Shown in pieces: positions 43,563-51,317 of a stretch of DNA of 54,713 nt; position 1 is the first letter of the stretch, and every line of letters starts with the position of its first letter. This DNA comes from Parafilimonas sp. (lineage in GTDB: Bacteria > Bacteroidota > Bacteroidia > Chitinophagales > Chitinophagaceae). The position numbers and the translations under genes are program-made. The notes beneath the pieces are model-generated. The model saw only the letters and a list, made by a program, of their open reading frames with translations. It was not told the origin of the DNA and did no database searches. The DNA lies in NCBI GenBank assembly GCA_040003735.1, contig JBDUBY010000131.1:1-54713 (forward strand). Reading direction: 5' to 3'.

Positions 43563-44981
43563 TTAAAACTGAAAATAAATAAAATCTGCACCGTTAAAAA
43601 CACCGGCAACAATCAGTAAAACTATAATGAGAAGATAGCCTGAATATCGAATCGAAACATTGGTGTTTCTAATAAGCTTTATTTTAGGATGATATTCTTC
43701 CAGATATTCAGACCCAAACAAAACGATCAAAGCAATAACATAATAAGCAAAGGTTATCGGCGGTTCACCCAAAAAAAGCCTGCCGGGTTTTAAGTGAATG
43801 ATAGATTTAAAAATATAAGCCGCCTGGTCAAGATTTTGCGACCTGAAAAAAATTCCCATCAACACAAATAGCGAAACGGTAAAAACCGTGCGCACAAAGT
43901 TTTTTGTAAAGCCAAGTCCGCGGTTCACAAACTTCAACATCGGGTTAAATATTTGTTCTAATGCAAGCACAACGCCGTTTAATAATCCCCAGATAATAAA
44001 AGTCCAGCCGGCGCCGTGCCATAAACCGCTTATTGCAAAAACAATAATTAGATTACGAATTTGAATGAGTGCTCCTTTCCTGCTTCCGCCAAGCGGAAAA
44101 TATAAATAATCGCGAAACCAGGTTGTTAGTGAAATGTGCCAACGCTGCCAAACTTCCTGTATGTTGCGTGAAAAAAAAGGTCGTTTAAAATTAATCATCA
44201 AATTATAACCCATCACTTTTGCAGCACCAATGGCAATATCAGAATAACCGGAAAAATCACAATATATCTGAACGATAAAAAAGAAAGTCGCTGTAATTAA
44301 TGTTACCCCGCTGTGGTGTTCTGCATTTCCATACACCGCATTTACATAAAGTGCAAGCCTGTCTGCAACAACCAGCTTTTTTACAAAGCCCCAAAGCATA
44401 ATTTTTAAACCTTCGGTGATGCGGTCATAATCAAAAAATTTTTCTTCATGAAATTGGTGCAGGATGTTTTGTGGCCGTTCTATTGGCCCTGCAACTAATT
44501 GCGGATAAAACATTACGTACAATGCATAAATACCAAAATGTTTTTCTGGCTGCTGGTTGCCTCGATATATTTCAATGGTATAACTCATTGCCTGGAATGT
44601 ATGAAACGACAAACCTATGGGCAATAAAATATTGAGATAAGGAATTGGGTTTCTCGAATCTATCAAACCCAATAAACCAGTAAGGTTTGAGTTTAAAAAA
44701 TTAAAATATTTAAAGAATGCAAGCACTCCAATATTCGCAATTAAACTACATATCAACCATGCTTTTCTTTTCCTTCCAGAACTATTCGCAATAAATAAAC
44801 CTGCGAAATAATCGATACCGATTGTAAAGCCAAGAATCAAAATGTAAACCGGTACAAAATACATGTAGAACACGCAACTGGCTACAAGCAATAATGCCCA
44901 ACGCAGTTTTTGCGGCGTAAAAAAAAATAAGGTGGTTACAATGATGAAAAAATAAACAAAGGCTAATGAATTAAATATCAT
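43563..44981 (-). CDS. MBOAT O-acyltransferase (AlgI/PatA/DltB-like)
   Basis: LPIGLSFHTFQ, FYPQLVAGPIER, YCDFSGYSDIA, WQRWHISL, SGLWHG (catalytic His), FIYFQF end. Confidence 0.93.
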   Translation of the reverse strand: MIFNSLAFVYFFIIVTTLFFFTPQKLRWALLLVASCVFYMYFVPVYILILGFTIGIDYFAGLFIANSSGRKRKAWLICSLIANIGVLAFFKYFNFLNSNLTGLLGLIDSRNPIPYLNILLPIGLSFHTFQAMSYTIEIYRGNQQPEKHFGIYALYVMFYPQLVAGPIERPQNILHQFHEEKFFDYDRITEGLKIMLWGFVKKLVVADRLALYVNAVYGNAEHHSGVTLITATFFFIVQIYCDFSGYSDIAIGAAKVMGYNLMINFKRPFFSRNIQEVWQRWHISLTTWFRDYLYFPLGGSRKGALIQIRNLIIVFAISGLWHGAGWTFIIWGLLNGVVLALEQIFNPMLKFVNRGLGFTKNFVRTVFTVSLFVLMGIFFRSQNLDQAAYIFKSIIHLKPGRLFLGEPPITFAYYVIALIVLFGSEYLEEYHPKIKLIRNTNVSIRYSGYLLIIVLLIVAGVFNGADFIYFQF

Positions 44982-44997
44982 TGTTCGATGGTTTCTT

Positions 44998-45031
44998 GCC
45001 CTTCTCTTTTAGAAAAGGGTTGGGATGAGGT
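44998..45031. repeat. REP-like palindromic element between ccr and the MBOAT gene
   Basis: gcccttctc-tttt-agaaaagggttgggatgagg, a CCCTTCTC...GGGATGAGG-type hairpin. Confidence 0.5.
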
Positions 45032-45032
45032 C

Positions 45033-46244
45033 TTATTTATACCCAATCTTAATAGCTGTATTTCCCTTATGAACATTATCATGCATTTCCTGTAAAGCGT
45101 CAGGTATTTCTTCAAACGAAACTGTTCTTCCCAGCACAGGTTTTATTTTTCCATCAATAACCAATTGATTAAACTCAACACATTCTTCAGGCTCTGCAAA
45201 ATGCGAGCCCTGTAATCTTTTGCGTTGCAGCCATAAATATCTTAAATCTAAAGAAGCCAGGTAGCCTGAAGTTCCTGCACAGGTAACAACCATTCCATTT
45301 CTATCACAAACAAAAAGTGATGTTGGCATTGTTGCTTCGCCCGGATGTTCCAACACAATGCGTGGTAATTTGCCGCCGGTTAATTCCAGTATTTTTTTCA
45401 TGAATTTCTTTGCTTTGCCGCGCCATATTTCCTGGGTTTCAGGCTTAAGCATATCTGAAGTTAATGCGCCCCAATGATCGTAATCCGAACGATTAATAGT
45501 AAGTGCGCCCATGTTTTCACAAAAAGCTCTTTTATCTTCAGAATTTATAACAGCAACAGGAATACCGCCAGCCATTTTTGTAAACTGAATAGCCATTGTT
45601 CCGAGGCCACCAGCGCCGCCCCAAATTAATACCACGTCGCCTTCTTTTACAACATGCGGATCATACTTGCATAACATTCTATACACTGTCGCACCAGATA
45701 ACATATACACTGCGGCTTCATCCCAGCTTAAATGTTTCGGTTTAGGCACGCACATAAAATGTTTCACTTTACAAAATTGTGCGTACGAACCCCAGTTTGT
45801 TTCATAACCCCAGGCTCTTGCAGTGGGCGCAAAACCAACATCACCGCCTGCTTTTACAAACGGATCATTGCTATCCCACCAACCAGCTTGTATTACCACT
45901 TCATCACCAACAGCAACATTTGTTACATCTTTTCCAATTTTATAAACAATGCCTGAACAATCGCTGCCTATAATTTGAAAGTCAACTTCTTTTTCTTTGC
46001 GCAATTGCATTACCTGAATCATATCCATTGGGTAACCTGTTGCGGCCCACACAGAATTATAATTCATACCCGCAGCCATAACGGCAACCAACACTTCATC
46101 ATCTCTTAAGTCAGGCACTTTTACTTTTTCAATTTCAAATGCTTTTGAAGGGATGTTGTAACGGTCTTGTCGCAACGTTTGCGCATACATGTACTCAGGC
46201 ACTTCGCCTATCGGAGGTAATGTTCCAATTTCGACTGTTTCCAT
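45033..46244 (-). CDS. ccr: Crotonyl-CoA carboxylase/reductase (enoyl-CoA carboxylase/reductase)
   Basis: PPIGEVP, VMAAGMNYNSVWA, GSDCSG, WGYETNWGS, GGAGGLG, EHPG, CAGTSGY, RYLW..KRLQGSHFA. Confidence 0.92.
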   Translation of the reverse strand: METVEIGTLPPIGEVPEYMYAQTLRQDRYNIPSKAFEIEKVKVPDLRDDEVLVAVMAAGMNYNSVWAATGYPMDMIQVMQLRKEKEVDFQIIGSDCSGIVYKIGKDVTNVAVGDEVVIQAGWWDSNDPFVKAGGDVGFAPTARAWGYETNWGSYAQFCKVKHFMCVPKPKHLSWDEAAVYMLSGATVYRMLCKYDPHVVKEGDVVLIWGGAGGLGTMAIQFTKMAGGIPVAVINSEDKRAFCENMGALTINRSDYDHWGALTSDMLKPETQEIWRGKAKKFMKKILELTGGKLPRIVLEHPGEATMPTSLFVCDRNGMVVTCAGTSGYLASLDLRYLWLQRKRLQGSHFAEPEECVEFNQLVIDGKIKPVLGRTVSFEEIPDALQEMHDNVHKGNTAIKIGYK

Positions 46245-46306
46245 TTTGCAGTAAGGTTTGTTTTATAAGATTATTAAATAATTGCAAGCAATTTTTTTGA
46301 TTTATT

Positions 46307-46361
46307 TTTTTGTGACCAGCAGTAGTATTTCAATTAATCACGGTTGCGTCGCACACTGCAT
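46307..46361 (-). repeat. ~55-bp dispersed repeat, copy 4 (diverged)
   Basis: Reverse complement ATGCAGTGTGCGACGCAACCGTGATTAATTGAAATACTACTGCTGGTCACAAAAA. Confidence 0.75.
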
Positions 46362-46435
46362 CTTATATTATTATTCATCTTTAGTTTTATATTTAAATAG
46401 TCATCATTAACTCAACCCTTTGATGAATAAATATC

Positions 46436-47974
46436 TTATCCTTTAATTTTTCTCTCTTCATTTTGCCAATACGGTTCACGAATTAGTCGCCGCAAAATTT
46501 TACCCGTTGGGTTTCTTGGCAATTCTGTTTTTATTTCAAGATATTTCGGAATTTTATAATCGGGCATTTTTCCCTTACACCAATTTTGTAATTCAGCTAA
46601 TTCAAGTTCACCTTCTCTTAAAACAACAACGGCGCAAACTGCTTCGCCGGCTTTATCATCAGGTACAGCAATAACAGCCACTTCTTTTATTTGCGGATGT
46701 TGTTCCAGCACTCTTTCAATTTCAGCAGGAAAAATATTTACACCTTTTGAAACGATCTTATCATTTTTTCTATCAATTAAAAACAAATAACCTGCTTCAT
46801 CAAAATAACCGATGTCAGCGGTTTTAAGCCAGCCATCATCACTAAACATTTTTTTATTATCTTCTGATGAATTCCAGTAACCGTTGGAAATATTTTCTCC
46901 TTTTATCCAAACTTCTCCCGGCGCATTTTTATCAAGTACATTATTATTATCATCAACAACAATCATTTCAATTCCAAAAGAAGGCTTACCGGCAGAAAGT
47001 AGTAATGTATTGTCGATAATATTTGCTGATGCAAGAATAGAAGCATGATCATCAAAACGAAGCGAACAGCCAACACCTGCAGATTCAGTCAATCCATACA
47101 CCTGCGTGAAATAACAATTAAAAATTTTATGTGCTTTAATTAAAGTATCAGCAGAAATTGGCGAACCACCATATTGAATATGTTTTAATGCACTAAAATC
47201 AAACTTATCAATCCCATCAATCATGCATATCATTTTAATCATGATGGGCACAAGCAAAGCATTTGTTGTTTTGGTTTCACTAATAATTTTTGCAACCATA
47301 TTTGGTTCGAACATTCTCACTAAAACATTTGTTGCGCCGGCATAAATGCAAGCGAAGAAAGCACCAAAACCAAAAATGGAATATAGCGGACCACAAACAA
47401 GATTTCGCGTATCAGGACCGAACGATGGCGTGTCCCACGCACATAACTGATAGCATGAATAAATATTTTTATAACTGATCAATACACCTTTGGGATTGCC
47501 TGTTGTACCTGAAGTATAAAGGATAACACAGGTATCATTTTCATCAATGGCTTCATTTAATTTAAATGAAATTTCATTGTTGATTTCGTCTTCAATTTTA
47601 TGCAGCTTAACATTTGATGATGGTAAATTTTCTATCAATTTTACAAACGCAGCACCATAAAAGAAATGATTTATACCAGCATCATTAATTACAAAATTTA
47701 TTTCAGCAGGCATTGCTCTCCAATTCAATGAAACCGGGATTACACCAATCAGCATTGCGCCTGAAATAAATTGTACAGCGTATGGTGTATTCAGATCAAG
47801 AAGACCAATGCGGTCGCCTTTTTTTAAACCAAGTGATTGAAGATATATTGCAACATTTACGCTTTGCTTATAATATTCATCGTAAGTAAAAGCTTTGCCT
47901 TCAAACAAATAAGCAATGCGTTGCGGATGTGCAAACGCTCTGTATTTAAGTACTGATGAAAAAATGGTCTTCAT
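46436..47974 (-). CDS. Long-chain acyl-CoA synthetase / ANL adenylating enzyme
   Basis: YTSGTTGNPKG, YGGSP, YGLTE, DR..D.I.SKG.NI.PAEIE, LPRNPTGKILRR; start at MKTIF. Confidence 0.9.
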   Translation of the reverse strand: MKTIFSSVLKYRAFAHPQRIAYLFEGKAFTYDEYYKQSVNVAIYLQSLGLKKGDRIGLLDLNTPYAVQFISGAMLIGVIPVSLNWRAMPAEINFVINDAGINHFFYGAAFVKLIENLPSSNVKLHKIEDEINNEISFKLNEAIDENDTCVILYTSGTTGNPKGVLISYKNIYSCYQLCAWDTPSFGPDTRNLVCGPLYSIFGFGAFFACIYAGATNVLVRMFEPNMVAKIISETKTTNALLVPIMIKMICMIDGIDKFDFSALKHIQYGGSPISADTLIKAHKIFNCYFTQVYGLTESAGVGCSLRFDDHASILASANIIDNTLLLSAGKPSFGIEMIVVDDNNNVLDKNAPGEVWIKGENISNGYWNSSEDNKKMFSDDGWLKTADIGYFDEAGYLFLIDRKNDKIVSKGVNIFPAEIERVLEQHPQIKEVAVIAVPDDKAGEAVCAVVVLREGELELAELQNWCKGKMPDYKIPKYLEIKTELPRNPTGKILRRLIREPYWQNEERKIKG

Positions 47975-47988
47975 ACAAAATAGTTTAT

Positions 47989-48741
47989 TTAAAAATTCCA
48001 GGCTAATTGTGCTCCGCCACAAACGGGCAAATTAATTCCTGTAACATAAGATGCATTTTGCGATGCAAAAAAACTTACTGCTGCTGCAATTTCTTCAGGC
48101 TTGCCTGCACGTTTCATTACATTATAAGAAGCAAGTTTATCAAACATTTCTTTGGGTAATCTTTTTTCTGTTGCAGGCGTTTGTATAAACCCTGGTGAAA
48201 CAATGTTGGCTGTAATTCCATACTTACCTTCTTCTGTTGCAACGTTTTTTATGAGCGATTCCATCGCAGCTTTTTGTGCATTATATATTGCCTGTCCGGG
48301 CAAACCAATTTGCGCTGCAAAAGACGAAACACCAATCCATCTTCCAAAATTTTGCGTGCGTTGAAACTGTAATGTTTTTTGCATGATGGTAAAGAGATGA
48401 TCAATATTAGCAGTAAAATTGTTTGAAAAACTTTCTTCTGTTGTATTGATCAAACGTTTTTTTTCTGAAGGAATATTAATATTACAAACAACGATATGTG
48501 GAAAACCAAATGCTTGCAGTTGCGATAATAATTTTTCTTTTCCTTGTTTAGTTGTAAGATCAATTGCCCAATATTGATGTTCTGATTTTGCTAATTCTTG
48601 TTGCAGTTGTTGTAAATTATTTTCATTACGCGCCACTGCTATAATTGTTGCGCCATCATCACTCAAAGCTTTGCAAATTGCATGGCCAATACCTTCACCG
48701 GCACCTGTAACTAAAGCAAACTTGTTATTTAAATTTTGCAT
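47989..48741 (-). CDS. SDR oxidoreductase (FabG-like 3-oxoacyl reductase)
   Basis: TGAGEGIG, GVSS, YNAQK, VSPGFI, YVTG. Confidence 0.9.
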   Translation of the reverse strand: MQNLNNKFALVTGAGEGIGHAICKALSDDGATIIAVARNENNLQQLQQELAKSEHQYWAIDLTTKQGKEKLLSQLQAFGFPHIVVCNINIPSEKKRLINTTEESFSNNFTANIDHLFTIMQKTLQFQRTQNFGRWIGVSSFAAQIGLPGQAIYNAQKAAMESLIKNVATEEGKYGITANIVSPGFIQTPATEKRLPKEMFDKLASYNVMKRAGKPEEIAAAVSFFASQNASYVTGINLPVCGGAQLAWNF

Positions 48742-48810
48742 TAAGAATTTAAAGCTGTTTGTATTTGGTTTACATTTTAATTATGATACTAAAGATGAAT
48801 ATTGATTCAC

Positions 48811-48866
48811 CTGTACAAGTGAGTGACACAACCGTGATGCCATGAAAACTATAGCTTGTAACATAA
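48811..48866 (+). repeat. ~55-bp dispersed repeat, copy 5
   Basis: CTGTACAAGTGAGTGACACAACCGTGATGCCATGAAAACTATAGCTTGTAACATAA. Confidence 0.85.
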
Positions 48867-48905
48867 TAATTAATTTTTCTCTGCTGGTTCCGTTTACTAT
48901 TTGCT

Positions 48906-48932
48906 AAAAAAATGCTCCAGAACTAAGGAGCA
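48906..48932 (-). terminator. Intrinsic terminator-like hairpin after the KAS III pair
   Basis: Minus strand tgctcc-ttagttct-ggagca-ttttttt, 8 nt after the stop at 48941. Confidence 0.65.
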
Positions 48933-48940
48933 CGCACAGA

Positions 48941-49939
48941 TTATGCAGGTACTTTGTAAATGGCCGCGCCACCTGTATAACCTGCACCGGCCGCAGTTAA
49001 TAGAACGTTTGCGCCGGGTTTTAATTTACCGTTTTCAAAAGCCTGGTTTAAAGTAATTGGAATTGTGCCTGAAATGCAATTACCAACACGATCAATAGAT
49101 ACTTCCATTTTATGCAAAGGCAATTGCAAACTTTCAGCAGCTTTTTTCATGATATAATAGTTTGCCTGGTGCGGAACAAACACATCAATATCATCAATTG
49201 TTAGTCCGCAATTATCACAAACCTCCTTTGCTAATTCGCTCATTTTTCCTGCAGCGCTTTCTGCCAGTTCACGGCCTGTCATTTTCATAACGGTGCCATG
49301 TAAATCTGCATCAACCGTTTCGTGCGATGAAGGCATTGCACTGCCGCCTGCAGGTACATATAATTTTTCTATTCCGCTTCCATCAGCCCATAATTGTATA
49401 TCCATAAAACCTTCGTCCGGACTGCATTTGGTAAGCACAACTGCGCCTGCACCATCACTAAAAATCGGGAGAAAAATTGGATCGTTTCTTCGAACTGATC
49501 TTGATTTTAAATCAGCACCAATTACTAAAACATATTCCATTCCTGTTGCAACAAGGCGTATCCCAAAATCAAGTGCATACATAAAGCTTGCGCATGATGC
49601 GGTTGTATCGCCAACAGGACAAGTAGCGCCGATTAATTGCTGAACATTGCAGGATGCAGCCGTGTTTACATAATCAGGTGTTTGCGTGCCCATAATAATG
49701 CGGCTTAATTGCGATGCTTTTATGCCAGCTCTTTCGAGCGCTTGTTTAGCAGCTTCTGCAGCAATGTGGCTTGTTGCTAATTTTTTATCTGCCCAATGTC
49801 TTTGTTTAATTCCGGTAACAGCAGCATGTTTGTCCGCGTCAAACTCAAAATCGAATATTGATTTTAAATCTTCGTTGGTTATAGGTTCGCCCGGCAAGTG
49901 CGCGCCGTAACCAATTATTTTTACGCCCCATCCGTTCAT
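48941..49939 (-). CDS. FabH/KAS III-like condensing enzyme 2
   Basis: TASCASF (Cys), FSDGAGAVV, PHQAN (His), GNCISG (Asn), AGAG. Confidence 0.92.
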   Translation of the reverse strand: MNGWGVKIIGYGAHLPGEPITNEDLKSIFDFEFDADKHAAVTGIKQRHWADKKLATSHIAAEAAKQALERAGIKASQLSRIIMGTQTPDYVNTAASCNVQQLIGATCPVGDTTASCASFMYALDFGIRLVATGMEYVLVIGADLKSRSVRRNDPIFLPIFSDGAGAVVLTKCSPDEGFMDIQLWADGSGIEKLYVPAGGSAMPSSHETVDADLHGTVMKMTGRELAESAAGKMSELAKEVCDNCGLTIDDIDVFVPHQANYYIMKKAAESLQLPLHKMEVSIDRVGNCISGTIPITLNQAFENGKLKPGANVLLTAAGAGYTGGAAIYKVPA

Positions 49940-49952
49940 GTTTTTATTAGTT

Positions 49953-51008
49953 TTAGGTTTTGATAATTAATCCGCCCCATGAAATTCCACCACCGGCAGC
50001 AATTAATAATGCAGTTTGATTTTTCGTTAGCTTATTATTTTTTCTTGCATGATCTAAAGCAACAAGAATGGCTGATGAACCGCAGTTAGCAATATCACCA
50101 ATAATATCAATTGTTTTATTCATTGGAACTGATGCAGCTTCTGCGGCAGCAATTGTTCTTTTTTTATGCACCTGGTGCGGTATAAAACAATCAATTTCAT
50201 CAGCAGTAATTCCTGAAGCTTCGTATAAAATTTTTGGTGTTGATGACCATGCTTCATGCAAAAAATCTTCAGCGCCTTCTGCATAAGTTAAATAATAATT
50301 CTCGTTATCGAGGTCTTGTTGATTTGGCGGCATCAACCCTTTTACACCCATATAATTACTGTAAGCGCCGTTTGTATTTAAATATCCCGCAACAATGCCT
50401 TTTTCAGCAGCATCTGTTTTTGATAATACAACAGCAGCACCTGCATCACCACCGGCATACGCCATTGTTGAGTTTAATTTTAAAATTTTGGTTGTTGTTT
50501 CACCGCAGGTGATCAAAACATTTCTTGCACCATTTTGTAAAAGCTGGGCTGCCAATGCAATTGAAAATATATTGGATGAACAACCTGTTTTCATTTCCAT
50601 TGCCGGCGCATTAATGCCAAGCTTTCCCGCAACAAACGGCCCCATTGAAGTTGAATACCTTGGTGAAGTAATAGTTACAGCAATAACAAAATCTATTTCA
50701 TCTTTTTTAATTCCGCTGTCTTTAATAGCATTTTCTGCAGCTTCGATCATAAGATCTGCAGAAGTTAGTTCATCTTGCGAAATGATACTGCCAGGTGTAT
50801 GTGTCCAAAATCTTTTTTTTAATCCAAGTTCAGTCTCGTAATAATCGGGGCGAAGTTTTTTCGCGGTCATTTTTTCTGCCCAATCATCACCGTATATCAT
50901 TTGATGAATTTCATCATTTGTAACCCATCGGCCTGCATTAGGAAACGCCGTGCCGCTGCCTATAATTTCAATATTAAATAAGTTGTTTAGAAGTAGTCCA
51001 GATGGCAT
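49953..51008 (-). CDS. FabH/KAS III-like condensing enzyme 1 (divergent)
   Basis: KTGCSS (Cys), GDAGAAVV, PHQVHKK (His), ANCGSS (Asn), GGGISWG; start at MPSGL. Confidence 0.9.
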   Translation of the reverse strand: MPSGLLLNNLFNIEIIGSGTAFPNAGRWVTNDEIHQMIYGDDWAEKMTAKKLRPDYYETELGLKKRFWTHTPGSIISQDELTSADLMIEAAENAIKDSGIKKDEIDFVIAVTITSPRYSTSMGPFVAGKLGINAPAMEMKTGCSSNIFSIALAAQLLQNGARNVLITCGETTTKILKLNSTMAYAGGDAGAAVVLSKTDAAEKGIVAGYLNTNGAYSNYMGVKGLMPPNQQDLDNENYYLTYAEGAEDFLHEAWSSTPKILYEASGITADEIDCFIPHQVHKKRTIAAAEAASVPMNKTIDIIGDIANCGSSAILVALDHARKNNKLTKNQTALLIAAGGGISWGGLIIKT

Positions 51009-51149: not shown

Positions 51150-51317
51150 TTATTGCTTATTTTTTGAACCTACGGTAAAAATTAAAACCAGGGCAGCGAG
51201 AGAAGCTACCGCAAACACTGCTGTCCATATACCCGCTTTAAATATGCCTGCAATAGCCGAACAACCAGCTACAAAAATTAGAAAACAGGCTAATGTAAAT
51301 TCAAGCAAAGGTTTCAT
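51150..51317 (-). CDS. Small membrane protein / lipoprotein-like
   Basis: VAGCSAIAGIFKAGIW hydrophobic peptide of 55 aa. Confidence 0.55.
   Translation of the reverse strand: MKPLLEFTLACFLIFVAGCSAIAGIFKAGIWTAVFAVASLAALVLIFTVGSKNKQ

Follow-up and report, generated by a model that had tools for sequence, protein, structure and literature searches.

The products of enoyl-CoA carboxylase/reductases (Ccr) are known to feed either acetate assimilation or modular polyketide synthases (PKSs), and the known cargo of MBOAT-SGNH systems is small, e.g. acetyl or D-alanyl. In a stretch of 54,713 nucleotides from Parafilimonas sp. (Chitinophagaceae; contig JBDUBY010000131.1), here termed the window, a ccr gene is grouped with an MBOAT gene, two ketosynthase genes, a reductase gene and an acyl-CoA ligase gene, raising the question of which acyl group such a cassette might build and where it might be delivered. 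Among the papers listed in a literature search, there was no account of a combined crotonyl-CoA carboxylase and MBOAT or of the six-gene cassette.

The six-gene cassette and its variants

All six ORFs lie on the minus strand, each running from ATG to TAA without internal stops. In gene order they encode KAS1 (49953..51008), a divergent FabH-fold ketosynthase of 351 aa; KAS2 (48941..49939), a FabH-like ketosynthase of 332 aa; a FabG-type short-chain reductase of 250 aa (SDR; 47989..48741); an ANL-family acyl-CoA ligase of 512 aa (46436..47974); Ccr (45033..46244; 403 aa); and an MBOAT protein of 472 aa that matches PF03062 (43563..44981), with intergenic gaps of 13, 199, 14, 191 and 51 bp. The flanking genes encode a transketolase (467 bp upstream) and, 147 bp downstream, a TonB-dependent receptor. 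The KAS2-SDR gap contains a terminator-like hairpin (48933-48912, n = 1); a promoter scan was uninformative (29.2 sites expected vs 23 observed). The original prediction had described six co-oriented genes with intact catalytic motifs and no ACP, PKS or NRPS in or beside the cluster. The former is borne out by the ORFs, family matches and motif residues, and the latter agrees with the ORFs scanned in and around the cassette, among which none of the three was found.

Ccr is present in 6/401 Chitinophagaceae genomes (400 searched plus that of the window), all of which carry the full cassette, i.e. the cassette is rare. The co-occurrence that had been proposed as a check was indeed found, as the other Ccr-positive Chitinophagaceae genomes have the six genes in an identical order (5/5). 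This order is also seen in two named MAGs, and the contig of a third begins at the SDR gene. The flanking genes differ between several Chitinophagaceae cassettes, and the cassette is retained across several soil and water bacteria. Since the same six genes recur in the same order with differing flanks, their grouping is not due to chance. The cassette of genome G334 has polysaccharide genes on one side and CpsB on the other, but placement in a polysaccharide locus is limited to one of the eight full Chitinophagaceae cassettes (genomes or MAGs, plus the window).

A fuller, ten-gene form occurs in another family (f22, 11 genomes). Here, the gene for a DltC-like carrier with a WDS motif precedes KAS1 in 11/11 genomes and an MBOAT gene is adjacent in 10/11; in loci whose contigs reach far enough, a phenylalanine ammonia-lyase, closest to the Nostoc enzyme (566 bits), and a second ligase are encoded in 9/9 and an SGNH protein in 7/7. 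A WDS-motif carrier gene also precedes KAS1 in Flavobacteriales-like loci, DUF1574 and MBOAT genes are linked in Leptospira-like loci, and genome G408 has KAS1, KAS2, ligase and Ccr without SDR, carrier and MBOAT. Altogether, the core is flanked by MBOATs of different clades and in differing orientations in three lineages, two of which have the DltC-like carrier.

The pathway had been called ACP-free, which holds for the Chitinophagaceae form, as no dedicated carrier was found in five cassette genomes that are 97-100% complete (top matches 25-27 bits) or in G000 (82.6% complete); the enzymes of this form might still rely on the housekeeping AcpP. As a property of the pathway it had to be given up in view of the carrier in all f22 genomes and the Flavobacteriales-like loci. 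An acyltransferase for loading an extender onto a carrier was not found in the cluster. The lyase-ligase module points to an aromatic branch in the f22 relatives; in five Chitinophagaceae cassette genomes, no cyanobacterial-type lyase was found (best match 30-32% identity). G000 has a lyase in a flexirubin-like locus (contig C362), but borrowing of cinnamoyl- or coumaroyl-CoA from such a locus is not general, G148 and G334 each having one 30% lyase match.

Ketosynthases, reductase and ligase

KAS1 and KAS2 share just 24% identity, yet both match PF08545/PF08541 in profile searches. On PRK09352 (cut-off 249 bits) KAS2 scores above the cut-off (267 bits) and KAS1 below it (147 bits); a fold search matches KAS1 with FabH/BioZ (Z 42.7, rmsd 2.0, 320 aligned). 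KAS1 has a small residue, G186, in place of the Phe preceding the GDG motif of FabH, and a basic residue five positions past the catalytic His. Its family comprises 66 proteins with 36-100% identity and a gap in similarity below; no characterised protein is named among the homologues listed, and a plasmid search with KAS1 gave zero matches. The KAS2 copies of the cassettes form a single clade separate from the host FabHs (support 100/100). The Cys-His-Asn triads, C143-H278-N308 in KAS1 and C116-H257-N287 in KAS2, are retained in 24/25 KAS1 copies (His replaced by Gln in one) and 27/27 KAS2 copies. The catalytic Glu of OleA, part of a Glu-Pro (E117) according to PMC7064751, is conserved in the respective loop of neither KAS, as placed via a FabH alignment rather than a direct alignment with OleA. 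Thus, the analogy to lipstatin and OleA chemistry drawn at the outset fails, as both triads are intact and the Glu is absent from both enzymes.

The SDR triad (S140-Y153-K157 in the window protein) is kept in 25/25 locus copies, and Arg38 presumably reflects a preference for NADPH. The ligase reaches 443 bits on PRK06187 (cut-off 476), and the solved structures closest to it are FadD13 and a feruloyl-CoA synthetase. Its Ser199 is found at the position of a FadD13 His that we assume to influence the room in the acid pocket, and Ser or Ala occupies this position in 23/25 copies. On PRK09274, which we take to be the OleC-type model, the ligase scores 131 bits in the window (range 117-151) vs a cut-off of 478, so that the suggested role as OleC-type β-lactone closer does not seem to apply.

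Ccr and possible sinks of its product

Ccr exceeds the cut-off of TIGR01751 (494 vs 378.55 bits) and matches AntE from the antimycin pathway at 401 bits. The residues of the CO2 site, as defined in PMC6628652, are N63/Y147/E148/H348 in the window protein; Asn, Phe/Tyr and Glu are present in 25/25 locus copies and His in 24/25, one copy being truncated. In the substrate pocket, A120/A144/F349 are found vs C/I/F in the closest non-cassette relatives. Across the 25 locus copies these positions are A/G/P, A and F/Y/G, respectively, and never C/I/F, whereas C/I/F is found in 47 of the 52 lowest-ranked Ccr homologues among the matches listed, the named members of which belong to Leptospiraceae/Spirochaetota. 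In the Caulobacter enzyme, the pocket has been opened by the substitutions C146P, I169A and F373G, as described in PMC8360864. The cassette pocket thus appears widened and suited to substrates larger than crotonyl-CoA, supporting the original view that this Ccr supplies an alkylmalonyl extender. Membership in the IcuL type, which acts on enoyl-ACP and is 18% identical to CinF according to a published account, was rejected at family level, the window Ccr being canonical. Nor is a modular PKS visible as user of the Ccr product, just as claimed: none was found in five genomes (including the incomplete G000), where all 19 ketosynthase matches lie in ORFs of 388-539 aa.

MBOAT and a candidate SGNH partner

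The window MBOAT has H322 and a C-terminal FIYFQF, i.e. an FxYxxF acyl-shuttle motif, and both elements are present in 9/9 cassette MBOATs checked. According to PMC12148441, FxYxxF shuttles acyl groups from MBOAT to SGNH in envelope polymer acylation, and the presence of His and motif supports the earlier assignment as a probable envelope-acylating MBOAT. The protein is nested within a local clade of MBOAT-SGNH pairs and is 57% identical to an MBOAT of a polysaccharide locus in the same genome; by this phylogenetic placement, it derives from a local MBOAT-SGNH pair.

In all Chitinophagaceae loci and the two Flavobacteriales-like loci, the cassette is without an adjoining SGNH gene; among loci of non-cassette MBOATs, 2/24 have no adjacent SGNH gene. 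A sister MBOAT with an SGNH-like neighbour is encoded in 6/6 cassette genomes, but this pair is not exclusive to them, as the MBOAT clade was found in 58/401 genomes. Such co-occurrence may mirror no more than descent from a duplication; three genera are represented by the six genomes. A single clade of cassette MBOATs was rejected (AU p=0.00026) in a test on 19 hand-picked rows, Leptospira-like and long-branch rows excluded, which was carried out after viewing a 45-row tree, itself a quick tree with long branches. As the cassette MBOATs do not form one clade and KAS2 does, the core and this MBOAT type have come together on at least two occasions.

The C403 SGNH protein of the sister pair is the predicted partner of the window MBOAT. 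Their modelled complex scored 0.72, with 0.00 for the best of three controls, and the mark used is reached by 116/157 solved pairs and 2/215 mismatched pairs; at least 96% of the contacts are shared between runs, and the pLDDT of the partner is at least 79. The alignments were self-made, and 12/21 MBOAT rows were non-cassette MBOATs that naturally neighbour an SGNH gene. As close cousins of the true partner also pass, the score reflects likeness rather than binding. The f22 partner has an SGNH fold, with OatA (Z 11.9, rmsd 2.8, 148 aligned), DltD and PatB among the top rows; this placement comes from a fold search with a model of mean pLDDT 67, a PDB sequence search with the alignment of this protein having given nothing and no Pfam/NCBIfam family having been matched.

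A proposed pathway for α-branched acyl groups and its rivals

We lean towards a pathway in which a Ccr-made extender is condensed decarboxylatively. The result would be a 2-substituted 3-hydroxyacyl group (with a benzyl branch in the form that has the lyase), which would be exported and attached to a polysaccharide of the surface; both the product and the acceptor are deduced. By reductive carboxylation of an enoyl-CoA with a longer chain than crotonyl-CoA, Ccr would yield an alkylmalonyl-CoA; in f22, the substrate would probably be cinnamoyl-CoA and the product benzylmalonyl-CoA. The third pocket position remains Phe/Tyr, also in f22 (G/A/Y), which is a poor obvious fit to cinnamoyl-CoA; cinnamoyl could also be a starter. 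The ligase may activate the other acyl chain or re-activate the branched product. One KAS, more likely KAS1, would catalyse the decarboxylative condensation to a 2-alkyl-3-oxoacyl thioester, the remaining one making the precursor chain or loading a carrier, and the SDR would reduce the ketone with NADPH. The thioester is probably CoA or the housekeeping AcpP in the window lineage and a dedicated carrier in f22. Finally, the MBOAT His would transfer the acyl group to the C-terminal Tyr of the MBOAT itself, from where an SGNH protein, here probably the C403 protein beside the sister MBOAT, would form the polysaccharide ester. More tentatively, these cassettes may represent a wider PKS-free scheme in Bacteroidota and Leptospira-like bacteria, in which Ccr extenders, in one family benzylmalonyl from phenylalanine, are turned by the KAS III pair into mini-mycolate-like 2-alkyl- or 2-benzyl-3-hydroxyacyls and passed by acetylation machinery to surface polysaccharides, one lineage having dropped the carrier and joined a resident MBOAT-SGNH pair.

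The same branched acyl group might instead be delivered to a lipid of the membrane or be released as part of a small molecule such as an ester, a pyrone or a β-lactone, with the MBOAT of the window lineage acting without SGNH or the ligase closing a ring. The cassettes without adjoining SGNH gene, G408 without MBOAT and SDR, and the Ser/Ala of the ligase, which could make room for a branched acid, would fit this; however, the shuttle motif towards SGNH on envelope polymers is retained, two further lineages have SGNH or DUF1574 genes in linkage, the ligase scores low on PRK09274, and there is no conserved exporter or regulator in the cassette, which makes such an end unlikely. Somewhat less probable still is an extender kit in which KAS, SDR and ligase only make and load the enoyl precursor, so that the exported group would be the alkyl- or benzylmalonyl itself, as an acidic hemiester, or else a simple reduced acyl chain without 3-hydroxy branch point. 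Reveromycin extenders do come from a homologue of FabH, a medium-chain ligase and Ccr (PMC5187497), and, as a carrier needs a loader and an acyltransferase is absent, one KAS may be a transacylase. Against this, the decarboxylating triad is near-invariant in both KAS enzymes, the lyase-bearing form retains both of them, the SDR and the first ligase despite its own enoyl-CoA supply, and a dehydratase is absent from every locus seen.

That the MBOAT is a passenger acetyltransferase beside a five-gene core whose product stays in the cytoplasm or diffuses and has nothing to do with acylation of the envelope is improbable: its similarity to the polysaccharide-locus MBOAT and the additional MBOAT copies common in Chitinophagaceae would be in line with this, but MBOATs of different clades accompany the core, in varying orientations, in three lineages, two of which have a DltC-like carrier ahead of KAS1. 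Acetate assimilation via the ethylmalonyl-CoA pathway, with the neighbours being ordinary lipid genes, is largely refuted and the least credible of these readings. Although the closest non-cassette Ccrs are canonical C/I/F enzymes and acyl-CoA mutase ORFs of ~520 aa and 1130-1150 aa (family level) are present in cassette genomes, mesaconyl-CoA hydratase is missing in 5/5 cassette genomes (four of them at least 96% complete; control search positive in Caulobacter), which agrees with the original prediction that this pathway is not visible here. This absence and the pocket altered in every copy speak against the role, as does the confinement of Ccr to the cassette in the Chitinophagaceae sample.

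If the α-branched pathway that we favour is true, Ccr would gain a third use, and the MBOAT-Tyr-SGNH relay would be seen to carry a far larger load than known so far, which would amount to a new class of surface decoration, hydrophobic or aromatic in nature. Moreover, the pathway would offer a minimal route to α-branched chains with five enzymes, Ccr variants whose pockets have been opened in nature and, in the carrier-fed and carrier-less forms, a natural comparison.

Comparison with known systems

The lipstatin (LstABCD), nocardiolactone (NltABCD) and olefin (OleABCD) systems resemble the cassette in combining a pair of thiolase-fold enzymes with a reductase and an ANL enzyme, and in the 2-alkyl-3-hydroxy product class. 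They differ in that their condensation is non-decarboxylative, relies on a Glu and on a second subunit without triad (LstB and NltB lack the Cys-His-Asn triad, as stated in 10.1101/856955), and needs no Ccr; the cassette ligase, in turn, is FadD13-like. Membership in the LstAB/NltAB/OleA group was rejected, with triads, Glu and ligase score all against it. The Ccr of the ethylmalonyl-CoA pathway shares the TIGR01751 match and the CO2 site, but its pocket is C/I/F rather than A/A/F.

In the splenocin pathway a lyase, a ligase and a Ccr have roles in benzylmalonyl-CoA supply, a route paralleled by the f22 lyase, ligase and Ccr; use of benzylmalonyl-CoA by splenocin is described in PMC8360864. 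The opened Ccr pocket is shared with extender-supply sets including AntE, and in RevR/RevS/RevT of reveromycin Ccr likewise accompanies a FabH homologue together with a ligase. In contrast to PKS extender-supply sets, the cassette combines two active-looking KAS III enzymes with SDR and MBOAT, in five genomes without modular PKS.

On the export side, a catalytic His with FxYxxF in the MBOAT is common to the cassette and the MBOAT-SGNH systems (PatA/PatB, AlgI/AlgJ, WssH/WssI, Dlt), as is an SGNH-fold partner in f22; the candidate SGNH gene of the window lineage is found in another locus. The DltC-like carrier of the Dlt pathway (DltA-DltC-DltB-DltX-DltD) is shared with the fuller f22 form only and was not found in the window lineage. 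Non-Dlt MBOAT/SGNH pathways operate without a carrier protein according to PMC12148441, from which f22 differs in having a carrier together with the fused motif. The known donors of MBOAT-SGNH systems are acetyl-CoA or D-alanyl-DltC, whereas here the donor would come from the KAS-SDR-ligase-Ccr set.

Results

The cassette and its catalytic parts

As put forward in the original prediction, the cassette consists of six intact genes, all on the minus strand (43563..51008), and the gene families and catalytic motifs claimed for them agree with our family and motif analysis. Likewise, no ACP, PKS or NRPS is found among the window ORFs scanned, the remainder of the window being housekeeping genes. 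KAS1 and KAS2 are only 24% identical, and ordinary FabH genes are present separately in the source genome (G000), a MAG of 82.6% completeness; the nearest cassette relatives of the window are MAGs named Parafilimonas or Bacteroidetes. A 55-aa hydrophobic ORF (51150-51317, minus strand) lies between transketolase and KAS1, and although similar sequences are located upstream of KAS1 at L017, L021, L022, and L028, nothing ties it to the cassette. Elsewhere in G000, contigs C362, C239, and C88 hold pieces of a cluster labelled by eye as flexirubin/aryl-polyene-like, i.e. a reductase, an aromatic lyase, a PaaK-type ligase, an ACP, ketosynthases, and a DarB-like KAS.

The window Ccr is canonical, with 9kva and AntE as closest PDB entries. 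It retains all four residues of the CO2 site, where Tyr is tolerated at the Phe position (PMC6628652). Three further positions open the pocket of an engineered Caulobacter enzyme that forms benzylmalonyl-CoA (PMC8360864). Placed by spacing in a 4gi2 alignment, these positions (A120, A144, F349) read A/A/F in the window protein. The canonical C/I/F occurs in 0/25 cassette copies, all 25 having Ala in the middle, and in 47 of the 52 lowest-ranked of 120 listed Ccr homologues, where the named members are Leptospiraceae or Spirochaetota. As the third position is unopened, the pocket does not fix the size of the substrate. No modular PKS that would consume the Ccr product was found in the genomes searched.

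KAS1 has a FabH/BioZ fold, and the catalytic triad is intact in 24/25 KAS1 and 27/27 KAS2 copies. LstB and NltB have no such triad and contribute a glutamate instead (10.1101/856955 and PMC7064751), and no conserved glutamate of this type is found in the KAS1 or KAS2 copies. Intact triads without this glutamate favour decarboxylative chemistry, which would fit the presence of a Ccr; together with a ligase score far under the PRK09274 cut-off they contradict the proposed analogy to lipstatin and Ole enzymes. Where FabH and KAS2 have Phe, KAS1 carries Gly, Ala or Val (25/25 copies), and a basic residue follows five positions after the His in 23/25 KAS1 and 0/27 KAS2 copies. Judged by FabH, the small residue would enlarge the pocket and the basic residue would belong to a thioester-docking patch, and thus KAS1 might be a candidate for the branching step. 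The cassette ligase is nearest to FadD13 and a feruloyl-CoA synthetase, the His of FadD13 being replaced by Ser or Ala in 23/25 copies.

Distribution and forms in relatives

Ccr is found in 6/401 Chitinophagaceae genomes, including that of the window, and the order KAS1-KAS2-SDR-ligase-Ccr-MBOAT recurs with different flanks in all five others, bearing out the anticipated co-occurrence. Of five loci from a genome scan three contain the cassette (one cut by a contig end), and two actinobacterial Ccr loci are without it. A profile search across the taxonomic order gave KAS1 matches in 14/401 genomes, 11 of them from another family (f22; 28 genomes in the sample). In the phylum sample the Ccr cut-off was passed by only 2/401 genomes, the window's and G830; the latter is without a cassette, and the pocket of its Ccr is canonical. 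Near the G830 Ccr (C/I/F; L094 10420-11667, L095) are large ORFs resembling NRPS/PKS genes by eye and by a weak ligase match. Other families of the phylum have Ccr-like stretches below the cut-off within ORFs of 805-1819 aa (L085-L090, L092), perhaps propionyl-CoA synthase-type fusions. Named KAS1 homologues include Flavobacteriales and Leptospira proteins, with further unnamed clusters beyond, and none of the 20 looked up bears a characterised name.

The fuller cassette of f22 is arranged as MBOAT (divergent), carrier, KAS1, KAS2, SDR, ligase, Ccr, ammonia-lyase, second ligase, and SGNH (convergent). The carrier, a PF00550 match with an invariant WDS motif, is encoded in 11/11 genomes and an adjacent MBOAT in 10/11, G621 being the exception; lyase and second ligase are present in 9/9 contigs running past Ccr and the SGNH gene in 7/7 reaching far enough. 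In G621 an insertion element lies just upstream of the carrier gene (L074 13474-14648), while its cassette-type MBOAT is found on a different contig (L126) and is broken, with 6 stops in the match. No Pfam family covers the last f22 protein, but a model of it with a mean pLDDT of 67 is similar to SGNH folds at Z about 9-12, OatA, DltD, and PatB among them. The Ccr pocket is G/A/Y in 8/8 full-length f22 sequences, and the lyase is nearest to Nostoc phenylalanine ammonia-lyase, sharing its Phe-Leu motif. In f22 the branch is probably a benzyl group, and the carrier probably bears the chain.

Two Flavobacteriales-like loci combine carrier, core, and a convergent MBOAT, with neither lyase nor SGNH in view, and Leptospira-like loci contain DUF1574, the core, a desaturase with the Ccr, and MBOAT, with no carrier match. 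In the Leptospira-like loci L035 (5048-8758) and L037 (1479-8786), 3 and 6 related proteins of ~400 aa, respectively, are encoded in tandem between MBOAT and DUF1574; they look secreted, and all end in SGTVYRFTP. The one scanned has no Pfam/NCBIfam family, and they are possible acceptors or passengers. A reduced form in G408 comprises only KAS1, KAS2, ligase, and Ccr (L077, contig G408:C47, 6493-13337), the Ccr being opened at all three pocket positions (P/A/G). An aspartate decarboxylase (PF02261) follows Ccr and a DltA-like adenylation enzyme faces the cassette, possibly a beta-alanine-containing variant. A polysaccharide locus of G408 holds MBOAT, SGNH, and a WDS carrier (L161 12882-15586).

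G000 has two ACP-like matches (E 4.5e-6 and 0.096), and the best carrier matches in five cassette genomes of 97-100% completeness reach 25-27 bits, i.e. no dedicated carrier was found for the Chitinophagaceae form in these genomes. Hence the window form would be carrier-less or use AcpP, and the designation 'ACP-free' suits the window lineage but not the pathway family, as relatives encode a carrier.

MBOAT and its putative SGNH partner

The window MBOAT contains His322 and the C-terminal shuttle motif FIYFQF, through whose Tyr the acyl group reaches an SGNH protein that acts on envelope polymers (PMC12148441). A careful tree of 19 rows unites the Chitinophagaceae cassette MBOATs in one clade (100/99) within a local MBOAT clade, away from which the f22 and Flavobacteriales-like MBOATs lie; Leptospira-like MBOATs form a third, long-branched group in a quick 45-row tree. 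On the 19 rows, a single clade for all cassette MBOATs was rejected (p=0.00026), and the KAS2 cassette copies are one clade. In Chitinophagaceae the carrier is missing where the MBOAT has been replaced, a single event that may point to a switch to a CoA-type donor.

The local clade is present in 58/401 family genomes, and an ORF of 300-370 aa follows MBOAT at 22/24 non-cassette loci viewed, 12 of these ORFs being assigned to the f22 SGNH by BLAST and the others by eye. Tandem or SGNH-less copies occur in cassette-free genomes (G092:C36, G105:C7, G191:C5; L135, L138), and one SGNH may be shared by several MBOATs. All cassette genomes (6/6) encode a sister MBOAT-SGNH-like pair, which adjoins polysaccharide genes in G000, G012, G148, and G334, and not in G091. 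Sister pairs at sulfotransferase-rich polysaccharide loci (L158, L159, L160, L177) suggest sulfated, acylated capsules. The cassette itself lies between a polysaccharide locus and CpsB in G334 and outside such loci elsewhere.

The predicted complex of the window MBOAT with the SGNH of the sister pair on contig C403 scored 0.72 (best of three controls, 0.00), with contacts agreeing to at least 96% and a partner pLDDT of at least 79; the mark used is reached by 116/157 solved and 2/215 mismatched pairs. As 12 of the 21 MBOAT alignment rows are non-cassette and close cousins of a true partner also pass, the prediction indicates a plausible interface rather than its actual use.

Discussion

We cautiously favour a cassette that builds a 2-substituted 3-hydroxyacyl group and exports it via MBOAT and the sister SGNH to a surface polysaccharide. 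Ccr would convert an enoyl-CoA larger than crotonyl-CoA to an alkylmalonyl-CoA, one KAS would condense this with the ligase-activated acyl chain, and the SDR would reduce the resulting ketone. Tyr469 of the MBOAT would then take up the group and relay it to the sister SGNH, which would place it onto the polysaccharide.

An end product that is a lipid or small molecule is unlikely. The likeness to the RevRST extender kit, i.e. FabH homologue, ligase, and Ccr (PMC5187497), is the basis for proposing export of a malonyl group or simple chain, to which we assign a still lower probability. That the MBOAT is a passenger appears improbable. A role of Ccr in central metabolism is highly improbable; mesaconyl-CoA hydratase, which would have pointed to an ethylmalonyl-CoA pathway accounting for Ccr, is encoded in 0/5 genomes.

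Every part of the cassette is a known family, and no published description of the combination was found in the literature covered (main texts, few subscription journals). Membership in the lipstatin/Ole systems is excluded by the kept KAS triads, the missing glutamate, and the ligase score, and membership in the ethylmalonyl-CoA system by the hydratase not being found in the five genomes searched and by a cassette Ccr that is never C/I/F in 25 copies. A bolder reading, somewhat less likely than not, is that of stand-alone, PKS-free cassettes in which Ccr extenders and a KAS III pair might yield branched 3-hydroxyacyl groups for export onto surface polysaccharides. Compared with known systems, the cassette would work like a PKS extender kit joined to an MBOAT-SGNH relay.
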